From a virus (lineage: Duplodnaviria; Heunggongvirae; Uroviricota; Caudoviricetes): a DNA stretch of 64,000 bases. Of this stretch, positions 6,791 through 57,611 are shown in pieces. The notes beneath the pieces were generated by a model. It worked only from the letters and a program-made list of their open reading frames with translations. It was not told the DNA's origin and made no database searches. The DNA is taken from IMG/VR virus record IMGVR_UViG_3300028591_008384. The stretch is one strand, 5' to 3'. Position numbers and translations under genes: made by a program. How positions within the stretch are numbered: the first letter of the stretch is position 1; each line of letters begins with the position of its first letter.

Positions 6791-6983
6791 GTCCGCAGCC
6801 GCCTATTCGGCTTCCTTGAGGCTAGACTTGGATCATTTGGCCCTACGGACATGTTCGCGGCTAGGGGATTTGCTCATAGGTACTACTTGTCATATCTTCT
6901 CGGGGTGACGGATTATTGCCCGGATTACTAATGCTATAAACTATTAAAACAATCCCTATGAATAATAGGGCTTGCCACATGAG

Positions 6984-27477: not shown

Positions 27478-28851
27478 CTAGTCCAGTGCGTCAGGGTTTT
27501 CGGGGATGGGTTCGTACTTGAAGGCCTCGATTGCACGCTCGATAACCTTCGGGTCAGGGCAGTTGACCTTGCCCGGAGAGTCGGAGAGCTTCACCGCGTA
27601 CTTGCCGTTGGACATGATGAGCTTCATAATCATGCGGAGAGCATCGCGCTTCTTGTCGCCCTTGAAACGTACCAGCTTGCAGGCGAGGAAACCGCCAATA
27701 CCGAAGGCAACATTGATGTCCTTATGGAACTCGGTGGCAATCGCGATGGAGTGGTCAACATCGAGGCTGTCGGACCAGCATCCGCACTTCGTATTGGACG
27801 GGATGTTGTTCTTGCGGTAATGGTCGATGAGCATGTGGCCCCACACGAACGGATCGCCGGAGTCGTGGCGGCATCCGTCATAGAGCTTGGCCAGGTAGCG
27901 GTCAAAGTCGCGGAGGAACGCCTTGAAGCCGAAGTTGTCGGACAACGCGATACCGAGGTTGCCGCGGAACTCGTCGGCCCAGTCGTTGAGGACAGCGGCC
28001 TGGGACAGGTGCAGCGGGATGCTGTCGATGCCCTGGTAGAGGGCGTAGAGTTCATGGGCGAACGTACCGATTGCCTTGCAGCCGCACTTGATGGCCAGGT
28101 ACACGTTGGAGGTACCCACGAAGGCCGGGCAGCAGTCAATCATGTACTTCACCATGTACTCGTTCCAGTCATCGTCGATGGAACGGCGGACGCCGAAATC
28201 GGAAATCGTGAACTTGATACCACTGCGGAGGGCAGCATTCCACTTGGCGACCGCTTCGCGCAGGGCCGTCTTGGACGCATCCCAGTCGATATCGAGGTCG
28301 TCAAAGTAAAGGTTCTGGATGATTTTCAGCACATAGATTTCAAACCAGGTCGCCTGGATTGCCGGGATGCACCCGCCATCTGCGGTACCCGCCCAGATAT
28401 GGAGACCACCGTTGTACTTCGAGTCTTTGGCCACATGGATGTATTCGCGCTTCAGGCGGAAATCGGCCAGCATCTCGATGAAGTCATCGGAGAGCCACGG
28501 CATGACCCTGCGGATGCCTTCCAGTTCCCATTCGGTAAAGCGGAGGGTGCAGAGGTGGTCGAGTTCGCGGTTGATTTCGTCAAAATACGGGGTGAGGTCA
28601 ACACCGGTGGAACGGAGCTTGAATTCCCAGTAGGAGCGCTCGTTACGGCGCTTGTGGAACACAAGCTGGGCCATACCGAATTTATACGTGTCCGTCTTGG
28701 TCAGGTAGTCCACGCACCACTTGTTTGGGTTCTTGCGGCGATACTGTTTCGCTGCAGCAGGAGTGACGAGCTTCGCGCTCGGTTTACGACGACCCTTGCG
28801 GTTAGGCATTGCAAGGGAGAGTTTCTTCTTTTCGGTTACTTTCTGTGCCAT
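27478..28851 (-). CDS. nadV: nicotinamide/nicotinate phosphoribosyltransferase (NadV/NAMPT-like)
   Basis: ORF track 27478..28920 trimmed to Met24 with SD agaggt; RHDSGDPFVWG matches the R-DSGD signature of the NAPRTase/NAMPT family; about 457 aa, typical size. Confidence 0.6.
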   Translation of the reverse strand: MAQKVTEKKKLSLAMPNRKGRRKPSAKLVTPAAAKQYRRKNPNKWCVDYLTKTDTYKFGMAQLVFHKRRNERSYWEFKLRSTGVDLTPYFDEINRELDHLCTLRFTEWELEGIRRVMPWLSDDFIEMLADFRLKREYIHVAKDSKYNGGLHIWAGTADGGCIPAIQATWFEIYVLKIIQNLYFDDLDIDWDASKTALREAVAKWNAALRSGIKFTISDFGVRRSIDDDWNEYMVKYMIDCCPAFVGTSNVYLAIKCGCKAIGTFAHELYALYQGIDSIPLHLSQAAVLNDWADEFRGNLGIALSDNFGFKAFLRDFDRYLAKLYDGCRHDSGDPFVWGHMLIDHYRKNNIPSNTKCGCWSDSLDVDHSIAIATEFHKDINVAFGIGGFLACKLVRFKGDKKRDALRMIMKLIMSNGKYAVKLSDSPGKVNCPDPKVIERAIEAFKYEPIPENPDALD

Positions 28852-28864
28852 TTTTGTACCTCTG

Positions 28865-29026
28865 TTATGCAATTTCAATTTCCACGACGTCGAGGTCGTT
28901 GACGAACACGCCAAGGACATCGCCCTCGTTGCCGCCCTGGTCCGTTGTCTTTACCGAACTGTCACCATGACCGTTGGCAATCAGCTTTCCGAGCGCTTCA
29001 TACAAATCTTTCGCTGTATATCCCAT
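28865..29026 (-). CDS. hypothetical small protein (about 53 aa), hand-called
   Basis: ATG 29024-29026 with SD ggag; ends just upstream of the nadV start. Confidence 0.2.
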   Translation of the reverse strand: MGYTAKDLYEALGKLIANGHGDSSVKTTDQGGNEGDVLGVFVNDLDVVEIEIA

Positions 29027-31185: not shown

Positions 31186-31259
31186 AGCGGGAGACGAGAT
31201 TCGAACTCGCGACCTAGGCAATGGGAATGCCTCGCTCTACCACCTGAGCTACTCCCGCA
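31186..31259 (-). tRNA. tRNA-Gly(CCC)
   Basis: Hand-folded cloverleaf: acceptor GCGGGAG/CTCCCGC, D-arm GCTCAGGTGGTAGAGC, anticodon stem AGGCA/TGCCT with loop TTCCCAT, T-arm GGTCGCGAGTTCGAATCTCG; no encoded CCA. Confidence 0.6.
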
Positions 31260-34734: not shown

Positions 34735-35823
34735 CTATCTCCCGATTGCCTTCACGTAATCTTCGAGGATTTGGTTGTGGTGGAATGCCAGACGTGTCCT
34801 ACGGGCCACGCTCAACGGGAACCACGCAGCTTCCGCGGCATCATCGTCCCCCTTGACCGACCCGAACGTACCACGAGCATACACACCCACGTCATACGCC
34901 CAGTGGCCAGGCACGCTCTCACGCGGATCTTCCGGGATGTACACCTTCAACTGGTGGACCTGATTGGGGTAGAGGACAAGGCCAGTTTCCTCATTGAGTT
35001 CTCGGCAACTGCAATTCTCGATAGGTTCATGGGGATTGGTAAATCCACCTGGGAGACACCAATACCCGGCAAAGGGCCAACGCTTGCGGCGCACCAGGAG
35101 CACCTGGTCCTCGCGACCGATGGTCGGCTCACCGATGCCATTGATGACCACGGAGGTCACGGTGACAGAAGGCTTCGGGTAGTCACCTGGCTTGTAATTG
35201 GCAAGTTCCTGGTGTTCAGCGGTCCAATGGGTTACCGGATTGTCCTGATGGTACAGGCCATGCTGGAAGATGTACCCGAGAACTTGCGGAGAAACAGCCG
35301 TGCCCTCGTACATGGGGTTCATGAACATGTCACTGCGGACAGCGGTGGACGACACGTCTGGCACATTCACGAAGATTGGCTTGATGTCGCCACGTTCACC
35401 GAGTTCCGTATGGAAGTTGAAGTTGCGGCCACGATTGAACACGCGGATGCTGTACTTGCCGATGAGCTTCTCAGAATCCTTCCACTTGCCGGCAAGCAGA
35501 GCTTCAAGCTCGTCCATGCCGATAATGAGGTCAATGTCTGGGTCCTTCTTCTCGGACCCGGTGACATAGGTCCCATAGACCGCTTCAAGGGTATCGAACG
35601 TGCGGGACGACTGCTTGTAGATCTTGAGTTTCGGAAAACGGATATTTAGCATGGCATATCGGTCCTGGAACGAGGCATTGTACCGCTTCTCGTCATTCTC
35701 GGTCAGATAGACATGTACTTCCGGGTAGTTTTCCAGGAGATACTCGATGATGGCCTCGTGGGCCACGGTAAGCGGGTCAAATGCACCGCCATAGACTGCA
35801 ATTCTCTTTTCCATATTTACCAT
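34735..35823 (-). CDS. natV: bifunctional NMN adenylyltransferase / Nudix hydrolase (NatV-like)
   Basis: ORF track 362 aa; N-terminal IAVYGGAFDPLTVAHEAII (class-I nucleotidyltransferase HxGH-type motif); C-terminal Nudix box GYWCLPGGFTNPHEPIENCSCRELNEETGL. Confidence 0.65.
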   Translation of the reverse strand: MVNMEKRIAVYGGAFDPLTVAHEAIIEYLLENYPEVHVYLTENDEKRYNASFQDRYAMLNIRFPKLKIYKQSSRTFDTLEAVYGTYVTGSEKKDPDIDLIIGMDELEALLAGKWKDSEKLIGKYSIRVFNRGRNFNFHTELGERGDIKPIFVNVPDVSSTAVRSDMFMNPMYEGTAVSPQVLGYIFQHGLYHQDNPVTHWTAEHQELANYKPGDYPKPSVTVTSVVINGIGEPTIGREDQVLLVRRKRWPFAGYWCLPGGFTNPHEPIENCSCRELNEETGLVLYPNQVHQLKVYIPEDPRESVPGHWAYDVGVYARGTFGSVKGDDDAAEAAWFPLSVARRTRLAFHHNQILEDYVKAIGR

Positions 35824-41419: not shown

Positions 41420-42766
41420 TTAGAAATTCTCCCACTCCATCGGCAGCAACTTCTCGGCAAGTTCCACGGAGAACTTGTCGATTTCTTCCGGCGTATATGC
41501 CTTTTCCTTCAATCCGGATTCGGCAAACGCCTTGTTCACTTCCTTTCCAAGTTCGCCGATGTAGTCGATGATGTCCTCGAAAGTCCAATCGCCGTTCTTG
41601 ATGGCCAGGAGGAAGTCACGGTCATTACTGTACGGATGCTTGTTGTAGTCCATGCAGACCTTGTTGCAGAGGTCCCTGTCCGCACGGTAGACCGGGACGG
41701 TATGCTCGGTGGCGATACCGTAGGCGGTAAGGAGCAGACGGACACAGTGCATGATGTTCTTCGCATCGTAGCCCTGGCCATGCTTCAAGGTGGTGTTGTA
41801 GCGTTCCTCGTTACGGGCCTTGACCCAGTCCCAATACTCGTGCCACTTCTTGCACTTACGCGCAAAGTCGTTGCGGTTCACGAAGATATGGGCAACGGGG
41901 CTCAAACCCTTCGGAATGGAGTTGAGCTGGATATCATCGCTGCGCTCGATGTCACGGACGACACCATAGCCCCAACGCCACTTGTGCTCGGGAAGCTGGC
42001 GGACACCCTTGAATACCTTGGAGAGGCATTTCCAGACGAATTCGCGGATACTGATGGACAGCGGCTTCTTCTGGAAATACATGGCGTAAATACAGTCGCC
42101 ATGGTCGATACGGGCGATGGAGAACCAACGCTGCACTTCTTCCGGCTTGCCGCGATAGTTGGCCTTGACCCATTCCATGAGTGGAGTGGCGAGGTTGCCA
42201 TCGAGCACGTAGATGAAATCGACAAAGCGCGGCCTGTCTTTCGGCTGCGGGTCGAACACCTTCTTGTTCAGGCCCTTGGCGCGGTCAACCTGGCCACGGG
42301 CATACTCGCAGAACGACTTGTCACAGCGCATGGTGAGGAAGTCAAATCTCTTGCGGAGGATTTCCAGGATGGACTGGCCGATAAACACGCAGTGCCTCGG
42401 CGCATAGAGCATTTCGAGAGCCTGTGGATTTGCAGAGTTCAATTCGGTAAGGAACTTCGTGATGTCCCAGTAGACCTCGTTGTTCTTCTTGTCGGCAATC
42501 TGGCTAGGCGCATCGTGCTTGACGCGCTCGCTCCATTTCAGGATATACACGCCGTGGATGTCCACGTCGGATGTCTCGGTCGCGAGACCGAACGACTGCG
42601 AACCCGCGGCAACCTTGATAAGGAGGATACCCTTTTCATGGACCCTCTTCTCGGTCTCGGACATGGCGCCATTGGTCACCTGTTCTTCCCAGTAGCGTTC
42701 GAGTTCCTTGGAGAATGGCGGGAGTTCGGGTATGCTGTTCTTGAAAATTTCGCTATTATCGTTCAT
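41420..42766 (-). CDS. Pol-beta superfamily nucleotidyltransferase (RNA-repair-associated type, putative)
   Basis: ORF track 41420..42772 (TTG) moved to the in-frame ATG; GS-x10-DVD motif (AAGSQSFGLATETSDVDIHGVY); leaderless after the promoter box. Confidence 0.5.
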   Translation of the reverse strand: MNDNSEIFKNSIPELPPFSKELERYWEEQVTNGAMSETEKRVHEKGILLIKVAAGSQSFGLATETSDVDIHGVYILKWSERVKHDAPSQIADKKNNEVYWDITKFLTELNSANPQALEMLYAPRHCVFIGQSILEILRKRFDFLTMRCDKSFCEYARGQVDRAKGLNKKVFDPQPKDRPRFVDFIYVLDGNLATPLMEWVKANYRGKPEEVQRWFSIARIDHGDCIYAMYFQKKPLSISIREFVWKCLSKVFKGVRQLPEHKWRWGYGVVRDIERSDDIQLNSIPKGLSPVAHIFVNRNDFARKCKKWHEYWDWVKARNEERYNTTLKHGQGYDAKNIMHCVRLLLTAYGIATEHTVPVYRADRDLCNKVCMDYNKHPYSNDRDFLLAIKNGDWTFEDIIDYIGELGKEVNKAFAESGLKEKAYTPEEIDKFSVELAEKLLPMEWENF

Positions 42767-42800
42767 GTTCAAAATATAGCAAAATTATTCCCGATTGGCA
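42767..42800 (-). promoter_or_regulatory. phage promoter motif
   Basis: Reverse complement TTTTGCTATATTTTGAAC-ATG. Confidence 0.45.
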
Positions 42801-43355: not shown

Positions 43356-43882
43356 ACGACAACCCTCCCGGATGCCACGGCATCCCTGATTTTCTCGATG
43401 AGTTCGACTTCCATTAGTCCACTCAGCGTGCACACCGTGCTCGGCTTGTGCGTCATCTTTTCCTTGAATAGTTCCCGAGCATCAAATGCGAGGCGCCCAA
43501 GGGAGTCCTTGAACTGGTCACGCTGGAAATGTTCGCGGAATTCCTTCGGGAACGTCAGTTCCAGCTTGAATTCCCGTTCATTGTATTCCAGGGCTTTCAG
43601 TTTCTCAACCGCATCACCAAAGGACACTTCCTCGTCGTCATACTTGAACTTGTCGGCATAGACTTCCAAGGTGTGATGAGCATCTTCCCACTGGACGGAA
43701 CCGTCCGGACAGGGGAAAATTTCCATTTCGAGGGGAACGAACGGCTGAATGAGACGTGCCTTGGATATAACCTCGGCACTTACAGCCTCATTGGGCCGCC
43801 CATCCGAATAGGTGGCATACCATCCTGGCTGTGAACAGTCCTTCTCGATGCCTTCGAGCGTATTTCCATGGCAATCAATCAT
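43352..43882 (-). CDS. hypothetical protein
   Basis: ORF track 43352..44035 trimmed to Met52 (MIDCHG), which overlaps the upstream stop. Confidence 0.35.
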   Translation of the reverse strand: MIDCHGNTLEGIEKDCSQPGWYATYSDGRPNEAVSAEVISKARLIQPFVPLEMEIFPCPDGSVQWEDAHHTLEVYADKFKYDDEEVSFGDAVEKLKALEYNEREFKLELTFPKEFREHFQRDQFKDSLGRLAFDARELFKEKMTHKPSTVCTLSGLMEVELIEKIRDAVASGRVVV

Positions 43883-44766
43883 CCGAATACCTCCTTGAAT
43901 GCCTCGTAGTTTTCGGTATCCGCACCGCGACAGTAGACGGCGAACTCGATTGCCTTGAAACGCTTGCGGAATTCCGGCACGACTTCCTTGTAGGCCGATG
44001 CGACCACCTTCGGATCGTTGCGGAATGCCCCGCATCCGAATGCGCCGAGGATTACCACATCCACGAACTCATGTGCGGCTGCACTCAAGATCTGACGGGC
44101 ACGGGAGACATGGAGGGCCTTCAATTCCTCGGGAGAGATATCCGGTGCCAGTTCACGTTCCTGGTTGTACTTGGAAATGTTCTTCTCGCGCAGGTTGGGT
44201 GCCGCGCAGGTGATTACGTCGATAAACACCGGTTCCGGGAGCCAGTCGTAGTCATCATTACGGAGAATTGCAACATTCGGCGTATAGATGATGTCGTCGT
44301 TATGCAACGGGCCCACATTCTTGCGATGCGGGTCATAGAAACGGAGTTCGGCTTCCTTGGTCGTGAGGCACGGGTAGAGCGTTGTGCAGCGGCAGATGCA
44401 TTCTTCCTGTGCGGACGAACCGGTCACGACACCGCCACCCGGACGGGTAGCGCTCGCGAAATTGAGGACGGCCACCTTGCCACAGGGATTGGCCTTCTTC
44501 CACCTCAGCGCACTGTCGATCGAACGGTCACGGGAAACCGTGACGGGACAATCGTCATCGTAAATAGGCGCGATGGACTTGATGTCCACCGGTTTCAGGT
44601 GGAACAACTGGTTCGAAATGGACTCGTTGATGACCTTCCCGAGGGAGGCATCGTCCTTGATCTTGGCCATCGTGTTCTCGAAGATGCCGATATTGTAGCT
44701 TCTGATGTCGTTATGCATTCCTTGCTCCGCGGTTAATTTCCTTGATTTCATTGTTCTTTTCGGCAA
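43879..44766 (-). CDS. bacterial-type poly(ADP-ribose) glycohydrolase / macrodomain (DUF2263-like)
   Basis: ORF track 295 aa; PARG signature GGG-x7-QEE present as RPGGGVVTGSSAQEE within VLNFASATRPGGG...QEECICRCTTLYPCL. Confidence 0.55.
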   Translation of the reverse strand: MPKRTMKSRKLTAEQGMHNDIRSYNIGIFENTMAKIKDDASLGKVINESISNQLFHLKPVDIKSIAPIYDDDCPVTVSRDRSIDSALRWKKANPCGKVAVLNFASATRPGGGVVTGSSAQEECICRCTTLYPCLTTKEAELRFYDPHRKNVGPLHNDDIIYTPNVAILRNDDYDWLPEPVFIDVITCAAPNLREKNISKYNQERELAPDISPEELKALHVSRARQILSAAAHEFVDVVILGAFGCGAFRNDPKVVASAYKEVVPEFRKRFKAIEFAVYCRGADTENYEAFKEVFG

Positions 44767-45115
44767 CCAGGTTGTTCACCTTCGTAAAGAAGGATTCCGT
44801 TTCCAGTTCAACCATGCGATGCTGCTGTTCGCACATCATCACGAATTCTCGGGACAATGTCTTGCACGGAATGAAGGAAAATGTCCTGGCGATTACCGGG
44901 TTACGATACCAGGTATCAACGAAATTCAACTGAATCTGCGCATTGAGGCACTTGAATGAGCCGTTGGCGCATTCACTAATCCAGAATTCCAGGCACACGC
45001 CTTCCTTTCCCTTAGTAAACCGCGTACGGTCACGGTCTGTCCCGAACCCGCGTGATTCCAGCCATTTCCCGAATTCCTGAATTTCTGACCATTTAGGCTT
45101 TGCCATGATTACCAC
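44711..45115 (-). CDS. hypothetical protein
   Basis: ORF track 134 aa. Confidence 0.35.
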   Translation of the reverse strand: MVIMAKPKWSEIQEFGKWLESRGFGTDRDRTRFTKGKEGVCLEFWISECANGSFKCLNAQIQLNFVDTWYRNPVIARTFSFIPCKTLSREFVMMCEQQHRMVELETESFFTKVNNLVAEKNNEIKEINRGARNA

Positions 45116-46344
45116 ATCCTGTTCATTGAATTGTCCAAGTCATCCTTGATGCGCTTGCAGTCGGCGAGGATGACTTCCCGCAGACGCTTGCCAAATTCAG
45201 GCCCTTCCTGAATACCTTCGGCAGCAACCTGCTTTCCGTATTCGGGTTCGCCCTTTCTACACCTAGCAATCAGTTCGCATATTGTCACCGCGCCCTCGCC
45301 CAGGGCAGTGCCATACGGGTTCAGTTCACGGTACAGGTTGGCGATGATCCTGAATTCCGGGGAAGCGGCCAGCTCGACAGAATAGAGCAGCTTCTCATCG
45401 GCAAGGCCGAACTTGCCGGACATGATGCCGATAAGGCCATCCCTGATGCGTTCGGCCATACGGATTTCCTTGCGGGTACAGCGGAGCCATTCCATTGTCT
45501 TCTTCGGCAGCATGCAGATGAATACGGACATGATTGTGTCTGCATCCACGTTGCCGCGCACCAAGGTTTCCACCAGCATGCGCTGACGGTCGAAGCAGAA
45601 GCCGGCATCCTGGAAAATCGATCCGATACCGTAATCGGACAAGTAACCAATCATGTTCACAAATGGCATAACTCCGTACTCGGCGCACTTGTGGAGCTCG
45701 TCATGGATACGTTCCATGGCAACGTTCTTTACATGGTGGAGACGGCTACGCATCGCCAGCTTGGTAAGATCGTCAATCACGAAACCGAAACGGGCAGCAA
45801 ATCGCATTCCGCGGATGATACGGAGGGAATCCTCGGTCATGCGGTCATACGGGTTGCCCACTGCACGAAGACGGCGGAACACCAGGTCATCGATGCCACC
45901 GAAGTAGTCTATGACATTGAGGTCCTTGTCCAGACCCATCGCGTTGATCGTGAAGTCACGACGGGCGCAGTCCTCCTTGAAGGACTTGGTGAAATTCACG
46001 GAATCCGGGTGACGACCGTCGGAGTAGTTGCCATCGACACGGAACTGAGTCACCTCGAACACCAGGCCCTCGTAATGGACCAGGATGGTGCCATGAGCCT
46101 CCCCGTTATTGGAATCGCAGCGGAAGGCAAGTTTCAGGTCCTCGATGGGCATATTGGTCGCGATGTCCACGTCATGGACGGGGACTTCGGCATCGGTGCC
46201 CGGAACCATGCCCAACTGGCGAATAACGAGGTCACGCACCGCACCGCCGGCAATGTATGCCTCGTGCTTGCGCTTGTGGATTTCGGCAAGAAGGCCAAGG
46301 CCCTTCCTGACGGTCTCCGAAATGTACTTCTCTTCAATCTTCAT
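45109..46344 (-). CDS. cca: tRNA nucleotidyltransferase (CCA-adding enzyme, class II polyA-polymerase head-domain type)
   Basis: ORF track 45109..46383 trimmed to the Met (MKIEEKY) 5 nt after the promoter box; motifs AYIAGGAVRDLV ... DVDIAT, RRDFTINAM, EDSLRIIRGMRFAARFGF. Confidence 0.75.
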   Translation of the reverse strand: MKIEEKYISETVRKGLGLLAEIHKRKHEAYIAGGAVRDLVIRQLGMVPGTDAEVPVHDVDIATNMPIEDLKLAFRCDSNNGEAHGTILVHYEGLVFEVTQFRVDGNYSDGRHPDSVNFTKSFKEDCARRDFTINAMGLDKDLNVIDYFGGIDDLVFRRLRAVGNPYDRMTEDSLRIIRGMRFAARFGFVIDDLTKLAMRSRLHHVKNVAMERIHDELHKCAEYGVMPFVNMIGYLSDYGIGSIFQDAGFCFDRQRMLVETLVRGNVDADTIMSVFICMLPKKTMEWLRCTRKEIRMAERIRDGLIGIMSGKFGLADEKLLYSVELAASPEFRIIANLYRELNPYGTALGEGAVTICELIARCRKGEPEYGKQVAAEGIQEGPEFGKRLREVILADCKRIKDDLDNSMNRMW

Positions 46345-46382
46345 GTCCCAAATGTAGCAAAAAGGTTGCCTTGCGGCAACCA
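46345..46382 (-). promoter_or_regulatory. fused intrinsic terminator and phage promoter
   Basis: Reverse complement GGTTGCC-gcaa-GGCAACC hairpin, then TTTTT, then GCTACATTTGGGAC-ATG; this terminates the upstream gene and provides the -33/-7 elements for cca. Confidence 0.5.
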
Positions 46383-46383
46383 T

Positions 46384-53883: not shown

Positions 53884-53959
53884 TGCCGACGGCCAGGGTC
53901 GAACTGGCAACCTGTCGATTAGAAGTCGAGTGCTCTGAAGTCCATTGAGCTACGCCGGC
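53884..53959 (-). tRNA. tRNA-Arg(TCT)
   Basis: Hand-folded: acceptor GCCGGCG/CGTCGGC, T-arm GCCAGTTCGACCCTGGC, anticodon loop CTTCTAA; C27/C43 mismatch noted. Confidence 0.5.
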
Positions 53960-53966
53960 TGAAAGA

Positions 53967-54323
53967 CTACGCCTTGGCCGGTCTCAATACTAGCTGATGC
54001 CTGGAATCCGCCCAGACAGTGGAAGGGGACGTGCCGCTGTAACCGCGGATGTCCACCGTGGAATGCCCGTCGGAATAGGTGAATACATCGGTGGTGCCAT
54101 GCTGATTGACGGCGCCATCGGCGAAAAGGGTGAAACCGAACTCGGAAGGGCCACCGGCGACCTCGCCACCCTGGCCCCTGAGCCATTCCTTGGCGGCATC
54201 GAAATCGCCACCGGTCGCTTCCAGGGCCTGCTTGCAGAGAAGCATGCTCACCTGGGTCGCCTTGCGCAATTCGTTGATCTGTGCCACCGTAACCATAATG
54301 TATCCTTTGTTGAATAAAGCCAC
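53967..54323 (-). CDS. hypothetical protein with N-terminal EF-Ts N-terminal (UBA-like) type domain
   Basis: ORF track 118 aa; VTVAQINELRKATQVSMLLCKQALEATGGDFDAAKEWLR resembles the EF-Ts N-terminal helix bundle ([24 protein letters not shown]...); the remainder is unrelated to EF-Ts. Confidence 0.4.
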   Translation of the reverse strand: MALFNKGYIMVTVAQINELRKATQVSMLLCKQALEATGGDFDAAKEWLRGQGGEVAGGPSEFGFTLFADGAVNQHGTTDVFTYSDGHSTVDIRGYSGTSPSTVWADSRHQLVLRPAKA

Positions 54324-54342
54324 GACATTCCGGATGACTTAG

Positions 54343-54416
54343 GGTATCAGACAAGACTTGAACTTGCAACGGCTGGTTCCACAAACCAGGGCTCCACCGA
54401 TTGAGCTACTGACACC
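54343..54416 (-). tRNA. tRNA-His(GTG) with encoded G-1
   Basis: Acceptor G-1 plus GTGTCAG/CTGATAC, C73; anticodon stem CTGGT/ACCAG with loop TTGTGGA. Confidence 0.6.
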
Positions 54417-54422
54417 ATGTAG

Positions 54423-54511
54423 AAGAGAGGGCGGGGCTCGAACCCGCATGTGAGTTTTGGGGCCCACGACGATTTAGCAAACCGTTCGCTTACCTATTAG
54501 CGTACCTCTCC
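54423..54511 (-). tRNA. tRNA-Ser(GCT), class II
   Basis: Acceptor GGAGAGG/CCTCTCT; anticodon stem ACGGT/ATCGT with loop TTGCTAA; long variable arm; T-arm GCGGGTTCGAGCCCCGC. Confidence 0.55.
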
Positions 54512-54515
54512 ATAG

Positions 54516-54589
54516 CTCCGACAGCTCGACTCGAACGAGCAACCGGTTCATTACGAATGAACTGCTCTACCATTTGAGCTATGTCGGAA
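54516..54589 (-). tRNA. tRNA-Thr(CGT)
   Basis: Acceptor TCCGACA/TGTCGGA; anticodon stem GTTCA/TGAAC with loop TTCGTAA; T-arm GCTCGTTCGAGTCGAGC. Confidence 0.6.
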
Positions 54590-54592
54590 TAG

Positions 54593-54665
54593 TCAGCGTG
54601 AGTGGGTACGATCCACCGACCTCATGCTCCCGAAGCATGCGCTCTACCAGCTGAGCTACACACTG
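54593..54665 (-). tRNA. tRNA-Pro(CGG)
   Basis: Acceptor CAGTGTG/CACGCTG; anticodon stem CATGC/GCATG with loop TTCGGGA. Confidence 0.5.
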
Positions 54666-54671
54666 ATTTAG

Positions 54672-54755
54672 CGGAAGCGGAGGGATTCGAACCCCCAAGT
54701 CCTTGCGGAACCACGGATTTCAAGTCCGCTTGAGTCACCAATCTCATGCGCTTCC
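54672..54755 (-). tRNA. tRNA-Ser(TGA), class II
   Basis: Acceptor GGAAGCG/CGCTTCC; anticodon stem GCGGA/TCCGT with loop CTTGAAA; long variable arm. Confidence 0.55.
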
Positions 54756-54759
54756 ATAA

Positions 54760-54846
54760 CGGAAGCGGCAGGACTTGAACCTACATGAGGAACTTCCTCA
54801 CCGCCGGGTTCGAGCCGGGGGCCTTACCAATTAGGTCTACGCTTCC
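54760..54846 (-). tRNA. tRNA-Ser(CGA), class II
   Basis: Acceptor GGAAGCG/CGCTTCC; anticodon loop CTCGAAC on a 4-bp stem with a C/C mismatch; long variable arm. Confidence 0.45.
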
Positions 54847-54853
54847 AAATTCG

Positions 54854-54940
54854 CGGAAATGGGAGGACTCGAACCTCCATGCAGCTTTCGCCACCACGCT
54901 CCATTCCAAGGAGGGCCAATACCAATTATGGGACACTTCC
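54854..54940 (-). tRNA. tRNA-Ser(GGA), class II
   Basis: Acceptor GGAAGTG/CATTTCC; anticodon loop TTGGAAT on a stem CTCC/GGAG with a C/C at 27:43; long variable arm; T-arm GGAGGTTCGAGTCCTCC. Confidence 0.5.
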
Positions 54941-54946
54941 AAAGAG

Positions 54947-55019
54947 TGGGACCGGGAGGAGTCGAACCTACGACGCGAAGCTTTTCAGGCTTCCGCTCTA
55001 CCAACTGAGCTACAGCCCC
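54947..55019 (-). tRNA. tRNA-Phe(GAA)
   Basis: Acceptor GGGGCTG/CGGTCCC; anticodon stem GAAGC/GCTTC with loop CTGAAAA. Confidence 0.55.
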
Positions 55020-55028
55020 ATAAAATCG

Positions 55029-55112
55029 AGCACTTAGCAGGACTCGAACCTGCGAAGGGATTACCCAGCAGATTTGCAGTCTGCTTCCTTTGCCGCTCGG
55101 ATTCATAAGTGC
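55029..55112 (-). tRNA. atypical 84-nt tRNA with anticodon GCA (Cys-type anticodon; enlarged D region and about 14-nt variable arm)
   Basis: Acceptor GCACTTA/TAAGTGC; anticodon stem GCAGA/TCTGC with loop CTGCAAA; T-arm GCAGGTTCGAGTCCTGC; GGGTAATCCC mini-helix in the variable region. Confidence 0.4.
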
Positions 55113-55148
55113 ATTTTAATAATCCATTACAAAAGTTCAAAAACTATA

Positions 55149-55239
55149 TCCCGAAGACAGGCGTCGAACCTGCATGCTGCATGCGAATACAGCGCCGGAT
55201 CCTAAGTCCGGGGTGTCTACCAATTCCACCACCTCGGGG
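55149..55239 (-). tRNA. tRNA-Leu(TAG), class II
   Basis: Acceptor CCCGAGG/CTTCGGG, A73; anticodon stem CCGGA/TCCGG with loop CTTAGGA; long variable arm. Confidence 0.55.
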
Positions 55240-55246
55240 AAATTCG

Positions 55247-55317
55247 TTGGCCTGCCCGGTTTCGAACCAAGACCGCAGGCTTCAAGGGCCCCCGTGCTAC
55301 CGTTACACCACAAGCCA
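55247..55317 (-). tRNA. tRNA-Gln(TTG)
   Basis: U1-A72 acceptor TGGCTTG/CAGGCCA (Gln-like); anticodon TTG in loop CCTTGAA (position 33 is C); T-arm CTTGGTTCGAAACCGGG. Confidence 0.45.
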
Positions 55318-55321
55318 ATAG

Positions 55322-55393
55322 TAGCCCCTCCGAGGCTCGAACTCGGGTGCCGGGATTGAGAATCCCGTGACTTAACCGCTGGTCTAAAGGGCC
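55322..55393 (-). tRNA. tRNA-Glu(CTC)
   Basis: Acceptor GGCCCTT/AGGGGCT; anticodon stem CGGGA/TCCCG with loop TTCTCAA; T-arm CCGAGTTCGAGCCTCGG. Confidence 0.5.
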
Positions 55394-55402
55394 AAACATT
55401 CG

Positions 55403-55476
55403 TCCCCAGAGAAGGACTTGAACCTTCAAATTAGTGGTTTTGAATCACTCGCCTCTGCCAGTTCGGCTACCTGGGG
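55403..55476 (-). tRNA. class-I-length tRNA with Leu anticodon CAA (short variable arm)
   Basis: 74 nt; acceptor CCCCAGG/TCTGGGG, A73; D-region GCCGAACTGGCAGAGGC; anticodon loop TTCAAAA; 5-nt variable region; T-arm GAAGGTTCAAGTCCTTC. Confidence 0.45.
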
Positions 55477-55483
55477 AAATTCA

Positions 55484-55557
55484 TCTTCCGAGAAGGAGTC
55501 GAACCTTCAAAATCACGACCCTGAATCGTGCACCTATGCCAATTCGGTTACCGGAAG
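55484..55557 (-). tRNA. class-I-length tRNA with Leu anticodon CAG (short variable arm)
   Basis: 74 nt; acceptor CTTCCGG/TCGGAAG, A73; anticodon stem CACGA/TCGTG with loop TTCAGGG; T-arm GAAGGTTCGACTCCTTC. Confidence 0.5.
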
Positions 55558-55563
55558 AAGTAG

Positions 55564-55634
55564 AGCGCCTATCCGGTCACGATCCGGAACCAACTGCTTG
55601 GAGGGCAGTGATGCAGCCATTACACCATAGGCGC
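55564..55634 (-). tRNA. tRNA-Gly(TCC)
   Basis: Acceptor GCGCCTA/TAGGCGC; anticodon stem ACTGC/GCAGT with loop CCTCCAA; T-arm TCCGGATCGTGACCGGA. Confidence 0.5.
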
Positions 55635-55638
55635 ATAA

Positions 55639-55715
55639 TGCGGGCAGCGGGACTCGAACCCGCGACCCATAGATTAAAAGTCTATTGCTCTAAAAACCGA
55701 CTGAGCTATACCCGC
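55639..55715 (-). tRNA. tRNA-Lys(TTT)
   Basis: Acceptor GCGGGTA/TGCCCGC; anticodon stem ATAGA/TCTAT with loop CTTTTAA; T-arm GCGGGTTCGAGTCCCGC. Confidence 0.6.
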
Positions 55716-55800
55716 GAAGTGCAGTTGAAAGAGCAATGGCCAACTGCTACCATCATAATCGGGTGCGTTTCAAAATCTTTTTCATTGTTTTACTCCTTAG

Positions 55801-55873
55801 TCGCCAGAGTGGGACTCGAACCCACAGATGACCGGGTTTAAGCCAGTTGTCTCTGCCATTCGACTACCTGGCG
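55801..55873 (-). tRNA. class-I-length tRNA with Leu anticodon TAA (short variable arm)
   Basis: 73 nt; acceptor CGCCAGG/TCTGGCG, A73; anticodon stem ACTGG/CCGGT with loop CTTAAAC; T-arm GTGGGTTCGAGTCCCAC. Confidence 0.5.
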
Positions 55874-55886
55874 TTAGTTTGTTTAG

Positions 55887-55969
55887 TCTCGATGGCTGGA
55901 CTTGAACCATGCACTCTGTTACGAACCAGCCCCTCAAGCTGGCGGGTCTACCAATTCCCCCACATCGAG
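55887..55969 (-). tRNA. tRNA-Leu(GAG), class II
   Basis: Acceptor CTCGATG/CATCGAG, A73; anticodon stem CCAGC/GCTGG with loop TTGAGGG; 15-nt variable arm; weak T-stem. Confidence 0.45.
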
Positions 55970-55973
55970 ATAG

Positions 55974-56044
55974 AGCACCTATCCGGGTACGATCCGGAGC
56001 CTTAACCTTGGCAAGGTCACTTGCTACCACTACAACATAGGTGC
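55974..56044 (-). tRNA. tRNA-Gly(GCC)
   Basis: Acceptor GCACCTA/TAGGTGC; anticodon stem TGACC/GGTTA with loop TTGCCAA; T-arm TCCGGATCGTACCCGGA. Confidence 0.5.
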
Positions 56045-56054
56045 ATATAAATAG

Positions 56055-56130
56055 TTGCCCGTGATGGATTTTAACCACCGAATGGACGCTTCAGAGGCGT
56101 CTGCCTTAGAACGGACTTGGCGAACGGGCA
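56055..56130 (-). tRNA. tRNA-Gln(CTG)
   Basis: U1-A72 acceptor TGCCCGT/ACGGGCA; D-arm GCCAAGTCCGTTCTAAGGC (Gln-like); anticodon stem GACGC/GCGTC with loop CTCTGAA. Confidence 0.55.
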
Positions 56131-56138
56131 ATAAGTAG

Positions 56139-56224
56139 TGCCGGTTGATGGATTCGAACCACCGAGAGTTCGTTAGAACGGGAGATTTACAGGCTCCAGC
56201 CATTGGCCACTAGGCGAAACCGGC
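56139..56224 (-). tRNA. tRNA-Tyr(GTA), class II, copy 1
   Basis: Acceptor GCCGGTT/AACCGGC; anticodon loop CTGTAAA on stem GGAGC/TCTCC (31:39 mismatch); long variable arm; T-arm GGTGGTTCGAATCCATC. Confidence 0.5.
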
Positions 56225-56228
56225 ATAG

Positions 56229-56301
56229 CTCCACCTCCTGGACTCGAACCAGGGACCATGCGATTAACAGTCGCACGCTCTACCAACTGAGCTAAGGTGG
56301 A
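56229..56301 (-). tRNA. tRNA-Asn(GTT)
   Basis: Acceptor TCCACCT/AGGTGGA; anticodon stem TGCGA/TCGCA with loop CTGTTAA; T-arm CCTGGTTCGAGTCCAGG. Confidence 0.6.
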
Positions 56302-56311
56302 ATAAAAATAG

Positions 56312-56400
56312 TGGGTTGGGTAGGATTCGGACCTACAATGTTGACCCTAAGGGACCGGATTTACAGTCCGGCGCGACACCGCCATCGCCGCAGCCAACCC
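56312..56400 (-). tRNA. tRNA-Tyr(GTA), class II, copy 2
   Basis: Acceptor GGGTTGG/CCAACCC; anticodon stem CCGGA/TCCGG with loop CTGTAAA; long variable arm; unusually long 5-bp D-stem. Confidence 0.5.
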
Positions 56401-56413
56401 ATAGAATTTTTCG

Positions 56414-56486
56414 CAGGGACTGAGAGATTCGGACTCCCGACATGCAGTTTTGGAGACTGCCGTTCTTCCAGCTGAACTAAATCCCT
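56414..56486 (-). tRNA. tRNA-Trp(CCA)
   Basis: Acceptor AGGGATT/AGTCCCT; anticodon stem GCAGT/ACTGC with loop CTCCAAA; T-arm GGGAGTCCGAATCTCTC. Confidence 0.55.
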
Positions 56487-56493
56487 ATATTCG

Positions 56494-56569
56494 TACTCGA
56501 TCTTGGATTCGAACCAAGGTTGTTTCTGCTTGTAAGGCAGACGCCATCGACCAGCTAGGCGAATCGAGT
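56494..56569 (-). tRNA. tRNA-Val(TAC)
   Basis: Acceptor ACTCGAT/ATCGAGT; anticodon stem TCTGC/GCAGA with loop CTTACAA; T-arm CTTGGTTCGAATCCAAG. Confidence 0.55.
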
Positions 56570-56575
56570 ATATAA

Positions 56576-56649
56576 CGAGAGCGGCGGGGTTCGAACCCGC
56601 GAATGGCGGTTAGACAGACCGCTGTGTTGAGCCTCTTCACCACGCCCTC
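56576..56649 (-). tRNA. tRNA-Asp(GTC)
   Basis: Acceptor GAGGGCG/CGCTCTC; anticodon stem GCGGT/ACCGC with loop CTGTCTA; T-arm GCGGGTTCGAACCCCGC. Confidence 0.55.
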
Positions 56650-56654
56650 AAAAT

Positions 56655-56760
56655 GGTTAACGCAGCCCCCGGTGCTTTAGGTTCTTATGTTGTTTCGGCG
56701 CTTTGTACCGACCGACCTTAACTTTGTCGGAGCCGGCATTCTTTAACTGCCGGGCTGCAT
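56655..56760 (-). ncRNA. structured about 105-nt element embedded in the tRNA array (candidate ncRNA / tRNA-like; unassigned)
   Basis: Terminal helix GCAGCCCGG...CCGGGGGCTGC enclosing internal hairpins (CCGAC-aaagttaag-GTCGG and others); no canonical T-arm or anticodon stem-loop. Confidence 0.25.
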
Positions 56761-56762
56761 CG

Positions 56763-56837
56763 TTGCGGAAGAAGGATTTGAACCTTCGACCAACGGATTA
56801 TGATTCCGCTGCTCTGACCGGGCTGAGCTACACCGCA
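56763..56837 (-). tRNA. tRNA with anticodon CAT (elongator Met or Ile2/lysidine type; not initiator-like)
   Basis: Acceptor TGCGGTG/TTCCGCA (U1-A72, one T/T mismatch); anticodon stem GCGGA/TCCGT with loop ATCATAA; T-arm GAAGGTTCAAATCCTTC; lacks the three G-C pairs and the C1/A72 mismatch of bacterial initiators. Confidence 0.5.
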
Positions 56838-56849
56838 ATAATTTGTTAG

Positions 56850-56921
56850 TGCTCCTACCTGGGCTCGAACCAGGATCCACAGATTAAGAGTCTGCTCGTC
56901 TAGCCATTGACATATAGAAGC
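56850..56921 (-). tRNA. tRNA-Lys(CTT)
   Basis: Acceptor GCTTCTA/TAGGAGC; anticodon stem GCAGA/TCTGT with loop CTCTTAA; T-arm CCTGGTTCGAGCCCAGG. Confidence 0.55.
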
Positions 56922-56925
56922 ATAG

Positions 56926-56999
56926 TCCTCACCCCTGAACTCGAATCAGGAACCTCTACCTTATCAGAGTAGCTATCTAACCAATTGATATAGATGAGG
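56926..56999 (-). tRNA. tRNA-Ile(GAT)
   Basis: Acceptor CCTCATC/GGTGAGG; anticodon stem CTACT/GGTAG with loop CTGATAA; T-arm CCTGATTCGAGTTCAGG. Confidence 0.5.
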
Positions 57000-57071
57000 A
57001 TGGTGGAGCACGATGCAGCCTAGGCTGCTTCCCGGCAAAGCCGGATGGATACTGCCCCAAAATCCATTTAG

Positions 57072-57144
57072 TAGCGCTGCCGGGATTCGAACCCGAGTTC
57101 CATGGTTGAAAACCATGTGTCCTAGGCCTCTAGACGACGGCGCC
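57072..57144 (-). tRNA. tRNA-Glu(TTC)
   Basis: Acceptor GGCGCCG/CAGCGCT (one C/A mismatch); Glu-like D-arm GTCTAGAGGCCTAGGAC; anticodon stem CATGG/CCATG with loop TTTTCAA. Confidence 0.55.
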
Positions 57145-57155
57145 ATAAGTTGTAG

Positions 57156-57231
57156 TGATTCTGCCTGGGGTCGAACCAGGAATCTTCTCGTTCGTAGCGA
57201 GATGCCTTCAAATCCATTTGGCGACAGAACC
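57156..57231 (-). tRNA. tRNA-Arg(ACG)
   Basis: Acceptor GGTTCTG/CAGAATC; anticodon stem TCTCG/CGAGA with loop CTACGAA; T-arm CCTGGTTCGACCCCAGG. Confidence 0.55.
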
Positions 57232-57236
57232 ATAGT

Positions 57237-57309
57237 GGAACGTGACGGGATTCGAACCCGTGACCTCTTCGGTGCGAACGAAGCGCTCTTCCAACTGAGC
57301 TACACCCCC
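57237..57309 (-). tRNA. tRNA-Ala(CGC) with G3:U70
   Basis: Acceptor GGGGGTG/CACGTTC (G3:U70 wobble present, G4/G69 mismatch), C73; anticodon stem CTTCG/CGAAG with loop TTCGCAC; T-arm ACGGGTTCGAATCCCGT. Confidence 0.5.
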
Positions 57310-57319
57310 ATAGAGTAGT

Positions 57320-57394
57320 GGATACATATCGGGCTCGAACCGATGACCTCCTGAGTGCAAATCAGGCGCTCTACCAAAACTGAGCTAATGACCC
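57320..57394 (-). tRNA. tRNA-Ala(TGC)-like
   Basis: Anticodon arm CCTGA-TTTGCAC-TCAGG; the E. coli Ala(TGC) arm is CCTGC-TTTGCAC-GCAGG; T-arm ATCGGTTCGAGCCCGAT; acceptor GGGTCAT/ATGTATC has two mismatches, so the boundaries are uncertain. Confidence 0.4.
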
Positions 57395-57404
57395 ATAGTG
57401 TACT

Positions 57405-57479
57405 GGACCGATATCGGGCTCGAACCGATGACCTCCTGCATGCCATGCAGGCGCTCTACCAAAGCTGAGCTAATGGCCC
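57405..57479 (-). tRNA. tRNA-Ala(GGC)-like, copy 1
   Basis: Anticodon arm CCTGC-ATGGCAT-GCAGG; the E. coli Ala(GGC) arm is CTTGC-ATGGCAT-GCAAG; acceptor GGGCCAT/ATCGGTC has two mismatches. Confidence 0.4.
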
Positions 57480-57538
57480 ATAATAAAAGTCATCCGAAAT
57501 GTCAATCTGCTGCTAGGCTTCACGAGCCAAGCGTTAGT

Positions 57539-57611
57539 GGAACGTGACGGGATTCGAACCCGTGACCTCCTCGCTGCCAGCGAGGCGCTCTTCCAACTGA
57601 GCTACACCCCC
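57539..57611 (-). tRNA. tRNA-Ala(GGC) with G3:U70, copy 2
   Basis: Same backbone as Ala(CGC) (GGGGGTG...CACGTTC-C); anticodon stem CCTCG/CGAGG with loop CTGGCAG. Confidence 0.5.

Follow-up and report, generated by a model that had tools for sequence, protein, structure and literature searches.

Type I leucine tRNA genes in a phage tRNA array: probable members of a mostly phage-borne lineage, exchanged as gene cassettes

The tRNA array and its genomic setting

The window analysed here is the whole of a 64,000-nucleotide (64 kb) stretch from a virus of the class Caudoviricetes (IMG/VR record IMGVR_UViG_3300028591_008384). ARAGORN finds 37 tRNA genes in it, 36 of which form one array on the minus strand (53884..57611), and this array holds all five leucine anticodons with one gene for each. 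Two of the five leucine genes are of type II, as the sequence-only reading that preceded this analysis had described them: a tRNA-Leu(TAG) of 90 nt with a 7-bp extra arm (55149..55238, minus strand) and a tRNA-Leu(GAG) of 84 nt whose extra arm is weak (3 bp) and whose T stem is imperfect (55886..55969, minus strand), both called by ARAGORN and Rfam. The other three, also on the minus strand, are of type I: tRNA-Leu(CAA) of 74 nt (55403..55476), tRNA-Leu(CAG) of 74 nt (55484..55557) and tRNA-Leu(TAA) of 73 nt (55801..55873). The tRNA-Ser and tRNA-Tyr genes of the array keep their long arms.

A tRNA nucleotidyltransferase (CCA-adding enzyme) is encoded at 45109..46383 on the minus strand (Pfam PolyA_pol, 8.5e-29; PHROG 2244, 7e-47). 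Reading of the sequence shows no encoded 3' CCA in any of the three short tRNA-Leu genes, and for this reason the phage enzyme is a likely maturation factor for their transcripts. Other ORFs of the window encode NAD salvage enzymes (an NAPRTase and an NMNAT-Nudix fusion), a PARG-type hydrolase, an RlaP-family nucleotidyltransferase, an NAD-dependent DNA ligase and three radical SAM proteins, and the window seems to belong to a very large phage. The window ORFs scanned against Pfam and PHROG gave no aminoacyl-tRNA synthetase domain; the only ORF of the size of a leucyl-tRNA synthetase (LeuRS), at 896 aa, has no match in either. A blastn comparison of the whole array with cultured phages gave no close cultured relative; its matches were of a generic tRNA kind and spanned no more than 8% of the query.

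Structure of the three short genes

The sequence-only reading had folded three cloverleaves of 73–74 nt by hand, with anticodons CAA, CAG and TAA and a variable region of 4–5 nt, and had proposed an Rfam scan as a check. Both programs agree with these folds and supply the strand. ARAGORN places the three tRNA-Leu genes on the minus strand at 55402-55476 (caa), 55483-55558 (cag) and 55800-55873 (taa), and each gene covers the full Rfam model RF00005 (1-71 of 71) at 52.2 (CAA), 47.8 (CAG) and 54.6 bits (TAA), above the gathering score of 29 and with no shift of the anticodon frame. These scores of 48–55 bits are higher than those of the type II genes of the same array (39–45 bits). The family covariance model R1, which is described below, reads the same three anticodons.

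In the ARAGORN drawings each short gene has a 7-bp acceptor stem, a 3-bp D stem, a 5-bp anticodon stem and a 5-bp T stem. The variable loop is 5 nt in all three (AAUUU in the CAA gene, AUUUU in the CAG gene and CAUCU in the TAA gene) and has U48 in each case; all three are thus type I tRNAs in the sense of a variable region of 4–5 nt with no extra stem, and their sequences leave no space for a long extra arm. The tRNA core residues U8, A14, G18G19, U33, G53-U54-U55-C56 and A58 are present throughout. Each gene has C1-G72, G7.U66 and A73; the CAA gene also has A15 beside U8, A14 and G18G19, an anticodon loop reading UUCAAAA and an A31.C39 mismatch, while in the CAG gene G36 is followed by G37. 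Positions 36-37 are canonical in all three (A36-A37 in the CAA and UAA genes, G36-G37 in the CAG gene). The acceptor stems contain no G3:U70 and no other obvious foreign identity element. C1-G72 and A73 are common to all five leucine genes of the array, as had been noticed from the letters. The shared D region, given earlier as GAAyTGG[C/T]AGA, is a good description only approximately: the D-loop motifs are GAACUGGCAGA, GAAUUGGCAUA and GAAUGGCAGA in the short genes and GAAUUGGUAGA in the long TAG and GAG genes, and the CAG gene reads GGCAUA, not GGCAGA.

Single-sequence minimum free energy (MFE) folds of the short genes do not give a cloverleaf, and their z-scores are weak (-1.2 to -2.8). Such folds are usual for genuine unmodified tRNA sequences and were for that reason not counted against the genes, although they are what would speak for a mis-call or a pseudogene, with a shifted anticodon frame or an overlooked long arm. 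ARAGORN, Rfam and the family covariance model agree on a full-length cloverleaf and on its anticodon, the sequence is too short to fit an extra arm, and we give a mis-call practically no credence, in agreement with the earlier view that these genes had not been misread. The three short genes are genuine, intact type I tRNAs with leucine anticodons.

A family of type I tRNA-Leu genes

A search pattern was built from the three window genes, combining a Leu-type D loop, type I spacing, an NAR anticodon and a T loop. The family sample gathered with it has parts of the D and T loops and two T-stem pairs fixed by the pattern, while the D stem, the anticodon stem and the remaining T-stem pairs are unconstrained. 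From this sample the covariance model R1 was made with 74 sequences that excluded the window genes. R1 scores the CAG gene at 79.4 bits, the TAA gene at 75.9 and the CAA gene at 75.7; the next tRNA of the window is Lys-UUU at 47.6, and the long leucine genes reach 35–37. All three short genes accordingly fall within the phage-borne type I tRNA-Leu family as R1 defines it.

In the alignment of these 74 sequences, which were preselected for 7/7 acceptor pairing both for R1 and for the covariation count, 98.8% of cells are standard pairs as against 37–46% in slid controls, and double-sided changes occur in 518 cells as against 148 in shuffles, a strong signal of covariation. Among 154 distinct family sequences A73 is found in 153, U48 in 153 and a 5-nt variable loop in all 154, and none of these features is fixed by the pattern. 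The features of the family (a 3-bp D stem, a D loop of the form GAA-N1-3-GGCAKA, a 5-nt variable loop ending in U, A73 and an NAA or NAG anticodon) are all present in the three window genes, with the D-loop match holding by construction because the pattern was designed from these genes.

The D arm was also compared with that of other isotypes. Global D-arm identity against every isotype was discarded as a discriminator, the region being too short, and a motif count was used instead. The motif RAA-N1-3-GGYAKA occurs in 63% of the long tRNA-Leu genes of the fetched loci and in 0–6% of each other isotype, and one long tRNA-Leu gene among them (GAG, 84 nt, locus L023) has a D arm of the type I style and so links the two forms of tRNA-Leu. 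By these comparisons the D arm of the three short genes is of the leucine type, and the genes belong to a large, mostly phage-borne lineage of type I tRNA-Leu.

Turnover of leucine alleles among related phages

Relatives of the phage were found in IMG/VR and in metagenomes, one of them on a contig of 334.6 kb. Four relatives carry a syntenic array with the same set of leucine anticodons (GAG, TAG, CAG, TAA and CAA). In three of these, L001 (identical to L128 and L129), L131 and L133, every leucine gene is of type II, with lengths of 83–90 nt. The fourth, L126, has type II CAG and CAA genes of 86 nt and a type I TAA gene of 73 nt (6889-6961). Alignment to related phages had been suggested in the sequence-only reading, and it yields a close match for one short gene and none for the others: the TAA gene of L126 is identical to that of the window, while the slots of the CAA and CAG genes are occupied by long-armed genes in the relatives.

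A mixing of alleles extends along the whole array. The window TAG gene is 100% identical to the L133 allele and 98% identical to the L126 allele, and the GAG gene is 100% identical to the L133 allele. For most tRNAs of the window, one relative or more has an allele that is 95–100% identical, the alleles of the others being only 55–90% identical, and the best-matching relative switches from slot to slot, so that the array is a mosaic of alleles. This cassette turnover is seen for many isotypes of the array and not for leucine alone.

Nothing close to the short CAA and CAG alleles is found in the four relatives sampled. These alleles are 55–61% identical to the long genes that occupy their slots in relatives, as compared with 73–80% identity to short leucine genes on unrelated viral contigs. 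Because of this difference, and because the relatives keep the order of the array with long-armed leucine genes while one of them shares the short TAA allele, the short genes are best regarded as cassettes that were swapped into the CAA, CAG and UAA slots. Deletion of the arm in place, from this phage's own type II leucine genes, was rejected, identity to the type II alleles that relatives have in those slots being no more than 55–61%. The earlier suggestion that the short genes arose from leucine tRNAs by loss of the extra arm therefore stands as regards their relatedness to true tRNA-Leu, including the Leu-type D arm, but not as regards a loss in place (55–61% versus 73–80%). The three short genes have C1-G72 and the less common G7.U66 pair in common, and this hints that they may have diversified within this lineage or become adapted to the same host.

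Distribution in phages and bacteria

The pattern matches at least 120 IMG/VR viral contigs. In cellular genomes, sampled at one genome per species from 185,579 bacterial and archaeal species, it matches 72 stretches, most of which sit in dense tRNA arrays on MAG contigs. The short-armed tRNA-Leu is thus far commoner in viral contigs than in bacterial genomes. Nearly all the viral matches listed are called as tRNA-Leu of 73–78 nt by ARAGORN, and every leucine anticodon is represented among them. Of the viral loci among the matches listed (n=118), 36 have two or more short leucine genes, nine have three, and 40 have genes of both types. The genome scan also gave solitary copies of a short tRNA-Leu on contigs of Abditibacteriota and Actinomycetota.

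Similar genes are present in cultured phages. A 77-nt tRNA-Leu(TAA) is 99–100% identical in about 290 T5-like coliphages and Salmonella phages, where it is annotated as 'tRNA-Leu' and once as 'tRNA-Xle'. In Escherichia phage DaisyDussoix (Bas31) this 77-nt short gene lies in the same array as an 85-nt type II tRNA-Leu(TAG), while T5 itself has a long tRNA-Leu gene only. Related genes occur in phages of Streptomyces, Gordonia, Vibrio, Klebsiella, Aeromonas, Pseudomonas and Proteus. We found no paper on the distribution or the shape of type I tRNA-Leu in phages in the open-access and bioRxiv literature, and since the search covered these sources only, this is no proof of absence.

Two expectations of the sequence-only reading fall in the light of these data. 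It had taken bacterial tRNA-Leu to be always class II, which is contradicted by the type I tRNA-Leu(CAA) of Streptomyces coelicolor (PMC6614811) and by the solitary copies in Abditibacteriota and Actinomycetota, and it had thought a leucine set with three class I members out of five to be unusual for a phage, which does not agree with the counts for the 118 viral loci listed or with the T5-like arrays that have one gene of each type. The short leucine genes of the window are real but not unique; their type is known from Streptomyces biochemistry and is annotated without comment in hundreds of phages. For the window itself the outcome is mostly a correction, its short genes being ordinary members of a tRNA type already present in hundreds of sequenced phages. 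What may be noteworthy is the wider pattern, that is, the viral enrichment, the swapping of slots with long alleles, and the presence in T5-like coliphages despite the failure of Escherichia coli LeuRS on the Streptomyces version.

Charging and decoding

The determinants used by E. coli LeuRS are A73, A14, A15-U48, G18G19 with U55C56, U54-A58 and A20a, while the anticodon and the extra arm are not needed (PMC9976931; PMC6614811), and the extra arm is likewise dispensable for S. coelicolor LeuRS (PMC6614811; PMC9976931). All of these E. coli determinants, including an equivalent of A20a, are present in the three window genes. What these genes lack is the long arm that typifies canonical bacterial tRNA-Leu. 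The chromosomal type I tRNA-Leu(CAA) of S. coelicolor is leucylated by its own LeuRS, which does not use A73, and by human mitochondrial LeuRS, but it is not charged by E. coli LeuRS or by one Streptomyces LeuRS (Fan et al. 2019, PMC6614811). Its acceptance in Streptomyces depends on the leucine-specific domain of LeuRS, and the 5-nt length of its loop matters for charging (PMC6614811). Because two of these enzymes fail on the Streptomyces version, acceptance of the phage tRNAs by a given host LeuRS cannot be assumed. No report of the charging or the expression of any phage type I tRNA-Leu was found in the open-access and bioRxiv literature searched.

The codons that the three tRNAs would read make up about 48% of the leucine codons in the window ORFs (CTG 30%, TTG 13% and TTA 5%). 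Compared with relatives that have type II leucine genes only, 83% of CTG, 80% of TTG and 100% of TTA codons of the window align to leucine, which is similar to the values for CTC (90%), CTT (86%) and CTA (95%), though such an alignment reports the meaning of a codon and not the identity of the tRNA that reads it. Across the relatives CTG, TTG and TTA interchange synonymously with the other leucine codons.

From the intact genes, their family membership, their identity elements, the replacement of long alleles in the same slots and the meaning of the codons, we infer that the three genes are working leucine tRNAs. The full reading that we favour, to which we assign a probability of roughly three in four, is that they are intact type I leucine tRNAs of a phage-borne lineage that are exchanged as cassettes, are leucylated by the host and decode leucine codons. 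The A31.C39 mismatch in the CAA gene counts against it. The array of this phage clade evolves by the exchange of whole tRNA gene cassettes, and in the window phage short alleles fill the slots for CAA, CAG and UAA, which in relatives are taken by long-armed ones. CCA would be added to the short tRNAs after transcription, the host LeuRS would leucylate them by way of A73 and the D/T elbow and not of the extra arm, and the leucylated tRNAs would then decode CUG, UUG and UUA as leucine. That T5-like phages keep a type I leucine gene makes a complete lack of function unlikely, though it does not in itself prove charging.

Alternative explanations and the reason for the short shape

Other fates for the short tRNAs were weighed against host leucylation. 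They might not be substrates of the host LeuRS at all, and might instead be decoys for tRNA-targeting enzymes or passengers in decay, as could be suspected from the failure of E. coli LeuRS to charge the Streptomyces tRNA and from the absence of anything close to the short CAA and CAG alleles in the four relatives sampled. We consider this very unlikely, given that the cloverleaves are intact and have higher Rfam scores (48–55 bits) than their type II neighbours in the array (39–45 bits), that covariation, A73 and U48 are conserved across the family, that positions 36-37 are canonical in all three genes, and that exactly one gene is kept for each leucine anticodon. A phage-encoded or otherwise specialised, co-evolved LeuRS in place of the ordinary host enzyme would suit the dependence of Streptomyces type I charging on the leucine-specific domain, and the phage genome is large (a relative lies on a 334.6-kb contig, against the 64 kb of the window). 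This is a highly improbable explanation, however, as the window ORFs scanned hold no aminoacyl-tRNA synthetase domain, the 896-aa ORF is without a Pfam or PHROG match, and T5-like phages with genomes of about 110 kb carry a type I leucine gene as well; T5-like genomes are not known to encode a LeuRS. Charging with another amino acid, with CUG, UUG or UUA recoded in phage proteins, has as its sole support a shape that is atypical for leucine. It is scarcely credible when CTG, TTG and TTA align with leucine in relatives at rates like those of other leucine codons, no G3:U70 or other obvious foreign identity element is present, and A73 is found together with a Leu-type elbow.

A further question is why the short shape exists. 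The short tRNAs, charged with leucine, could escape a tRNA nuclease or toxin, of the host or of a competitor, that senses the long arm or the type II shape, and phage translation could then continue once the long-armed tRNA-Leu of the host is destroyed. In favour of this possibility are the viral enrichment (at least 120 viral stretches against 72 in the genomes of 185,579 species) and the finding that a given slot holds a type I allele in one close relative and a type II allele in another, which looks like diversifying turnover. The NAD-salvage enzymes, PARG-type hydrolase, RlaP-family nucleotidyltransferase and CCA-adding enzyme would fit a phage under host attack, anticodon nucleases are known to be evaded by phage tRNAs (PMC10264068), and human SLFN11 prefers type II tRNAs according to work cited in PMC13462974. 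On the other hand, no bacterial nuclease specific for type II tRNAs was found in the open-access and bioRxiv literature searched, the same cassette turnover affects many isotypes of the array, the tRNA-Ser and tRNA-Tyr genes retain their long arms, and the data are explained just as well if an arm dispensable for LeuRS was lost neutrally. Escape from such an enzyme seems to us rather unlikely as the reason for the shape. The broader proposal, that type I tRNA-Leu is an answer, spread by phages, to some bacterial defence or toxin recognising type II tRNAs, with the polymorphism of the slots as the footprint of an arms race, we hold to be unlikely; if true, bacteria would possess an analogue of the preference for type II tRNAs seen in human SLFN11. 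Tied to it is the point that E. coli LeuRS was reported not to charge a Streptomyces type I tRNA-Leu while about 290 T5-like phages keep one, so that phage type I tRNA-Leu would have to carry features that make armless substrates acceptable to ordinary LeuRS enzymes. Bacterial Schlafen proteins were considered as the type II-specific enzyme and set aside, as those characterised so far cleave either the anticodon arm of type I tRNAs such as tRNA-Lys or the T loop of many different tRNAs. An escape of this kind bears on the reason for the shape and does not conflict with the short genes being working leucine tRNAs.

Comparison with known systems

Phage tRNAs that evade tRNA-targeting defences have been proven experimentally, in that case by changes in the anticodon loop (van den Berg et al. 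2023, PMC10264068), and T5 tRNAs act against PARIS and the retron Ec78 in studies cited in PMC13056530. Like these, the window genes would replace host tRNAs while differing from them in features that a nuclease could read. The known evaders differ in the anticodon loop, whereas the window genes differ by the whole extra arm and have no matching known nuclease.

Work on engineered E. coli tRNA-Leu without the extra arm, as cited in PMC9976931, shows that E. coli LeuRS needs A73 and the tertiary core formed by the D and T arms, whereas neither the anticodon nor the long arm is required (Larkin et al. 2002; Asahara et al. 1993, 1998). The same A73 and D/T elements are kept in the window genes, which are natural, while the armless E. 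coli tRNAs are laboratory constructs made from a type II tRNA. The type I tRNA-Leu of animal mitochondria also combines a short variable loop with the determinants A73 and A14, as in the window genes, but it is organellar and structurally relaxed and has its own LeuRS.

The 77-nt tRNA-Leu(UAA) of T5-like phages, for example bas31_0089 of Bas31 (MZ501058.1, 72027-72103), belongs to the same family as the window genes (87.2 bits with R1). It shares with them the type I shape, A73 and coexistence with a type II tRNA-Leu(UAG) in the array. It differs in its encoded CCA and its G1.U72 pair, as against C1-G72 and no CCA in the window genes, and in that there is one type I leucine gene per T5-like genome as compared with three in the window phage. 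T5-like phages offer a tractable system in which to study how LeuRS accepts an armless tRNA-Leu and whether the shape protects against tRNA-targeting defences.

The type I tRNA-Leu(CAA) of S. coelicolor is likewise of the same shape as the window genes, and it is leucylated by a LeuRS of the bacterial type (PMC6614811). It is a single chromosomal gene that its authors were unable to knock out, in contrast to the three isoacceptors of the phage (CAA, CAG and UAA) in an array of swappable alleles. The window genes are not of the S. coelicolor kind, in the sense of a native chromosomal gene that is the sole UUG reader of the cell, because they lie in a phage tRNA array beside genes of phage type and their alleles are interchangeable with type II alleles in relatives. 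Phages are not mentioned in PMC6614811. Solitary actinobacterial genes found here (L166 and L173) share the D arm CGAAyTGGCATAGG with the phage family.

Mosaic organization of the tRNA array

Comparison of the array at window 53884-57611 (minus strand), gene by gene, with the syntenic arrays of four relatives (L126, L133, L131 and L001) shows that it is a slot-by-slot mosaic. For most of its genes, one or more relatives carry a near-identical allele (95-100%), the alleles of the others being 55-90% identical, and the best-matching relative differs from one gene to the next. This pattern in the sequences implies that related phages often exchange tRNA cassettes and that many isotypes are affected.

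One unusual member of the array is an 85-nt tRNA-Cys(GCA) gene (window 55028-55112, minus strand), which scores only 35.6 bits in Rfam. Its allele is 100% identical in L126, while the tRNA-Cys genes of the other relatives are ordinary, at 74-76 nt, and show 59-61% identity to it. The window gene has a small extra arm of 3 bp and an odd spacing between the acceptor and the D stem.

The Leu-type D arm (GTGGCGGAATTGGTAGACGC) is also found on type I tRNAs whose anticodons are those of Asn, Gln or His, namely those at 5622-5697 of L131, in viral locus L014 (tRNA-Gln TTG) and in viral locus L105 (tRNA-His). This combination suggests that phage arrays hold what are probably chimeric or remoulded tRNA genes. 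The annotated tRNA-Tyr of Escherichia phage DaisyDussoix is 80 nt long (L123 6954-7033) versus 88 nt in T5 (L122 10341-10428), so extra-arm length may also be variable for Tyr in the T5-like phages. The window array contains two tRNA-Tyr(GTA) genes, of 87 and 90 nt.

Variation within the type I tRNA-Leu family

In an alignment of type I tRNA-Leu family members (A3, columns 1 and 74), G1.U72 is the first acceptor pair in 42 of 74 sequences, including the T5-like gene. The three type I genes of the window, and all Leu genes of its phage clade, have C1-G72 instead. Among short tRNA-Leu whose anticodon is NAG, roughly half carry A37 (33 A versus 38 G), a departure from the G37 expected for m1G37 in such tRNAs; the type I CAG gene of the window has the canonical G37.

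Type I tRNA-Leu genes were also observed as single copies outside tRNA arrays on large chromosomal contigs from the bacterial and archaeal genome scan (L138, L147, L164, L181 and L192; L134, L142, L166 and L173), L164 being a complete genome (AP024152.1). The solitary genes of Abditibacteriota have the anticodon TAG, are 73-74 nt long and are near-identical in five genomes, and those of Actinomycetota have the anticodons CAA and TAG. These may be native short-armed tRNA-Leu beyond Streptomyces.

Other genes in the window

Five auxiliary genes, all on the minus strand, encode a NAPRTase (window 27478-28920), an NMNAT-Nudix fusion (34735-35823), an RlaP-family nucleotidyltransferase (41420-42772), a microbial PARG-type hydrolase (43879-44766) and a CCA-adding enzyme (45109-46383). 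This group resembles the sets of NAD-replenishing and RNA-maintenance genes with which phages counter host defences.

A solitary tRNA-Gly(CCC) gene (31186-31258, minus strand) is separated from the main array by 22 kb. The array itself contains two tRNA-Ala(GGC) genes. The tRNA-Ser(TGA) at 54673-54755 (minus strand), an ordinary tRNA-Ser according to ARAGORN, barely meets the Rfam tRNA-Sec gathering score (47.8 versus 47).
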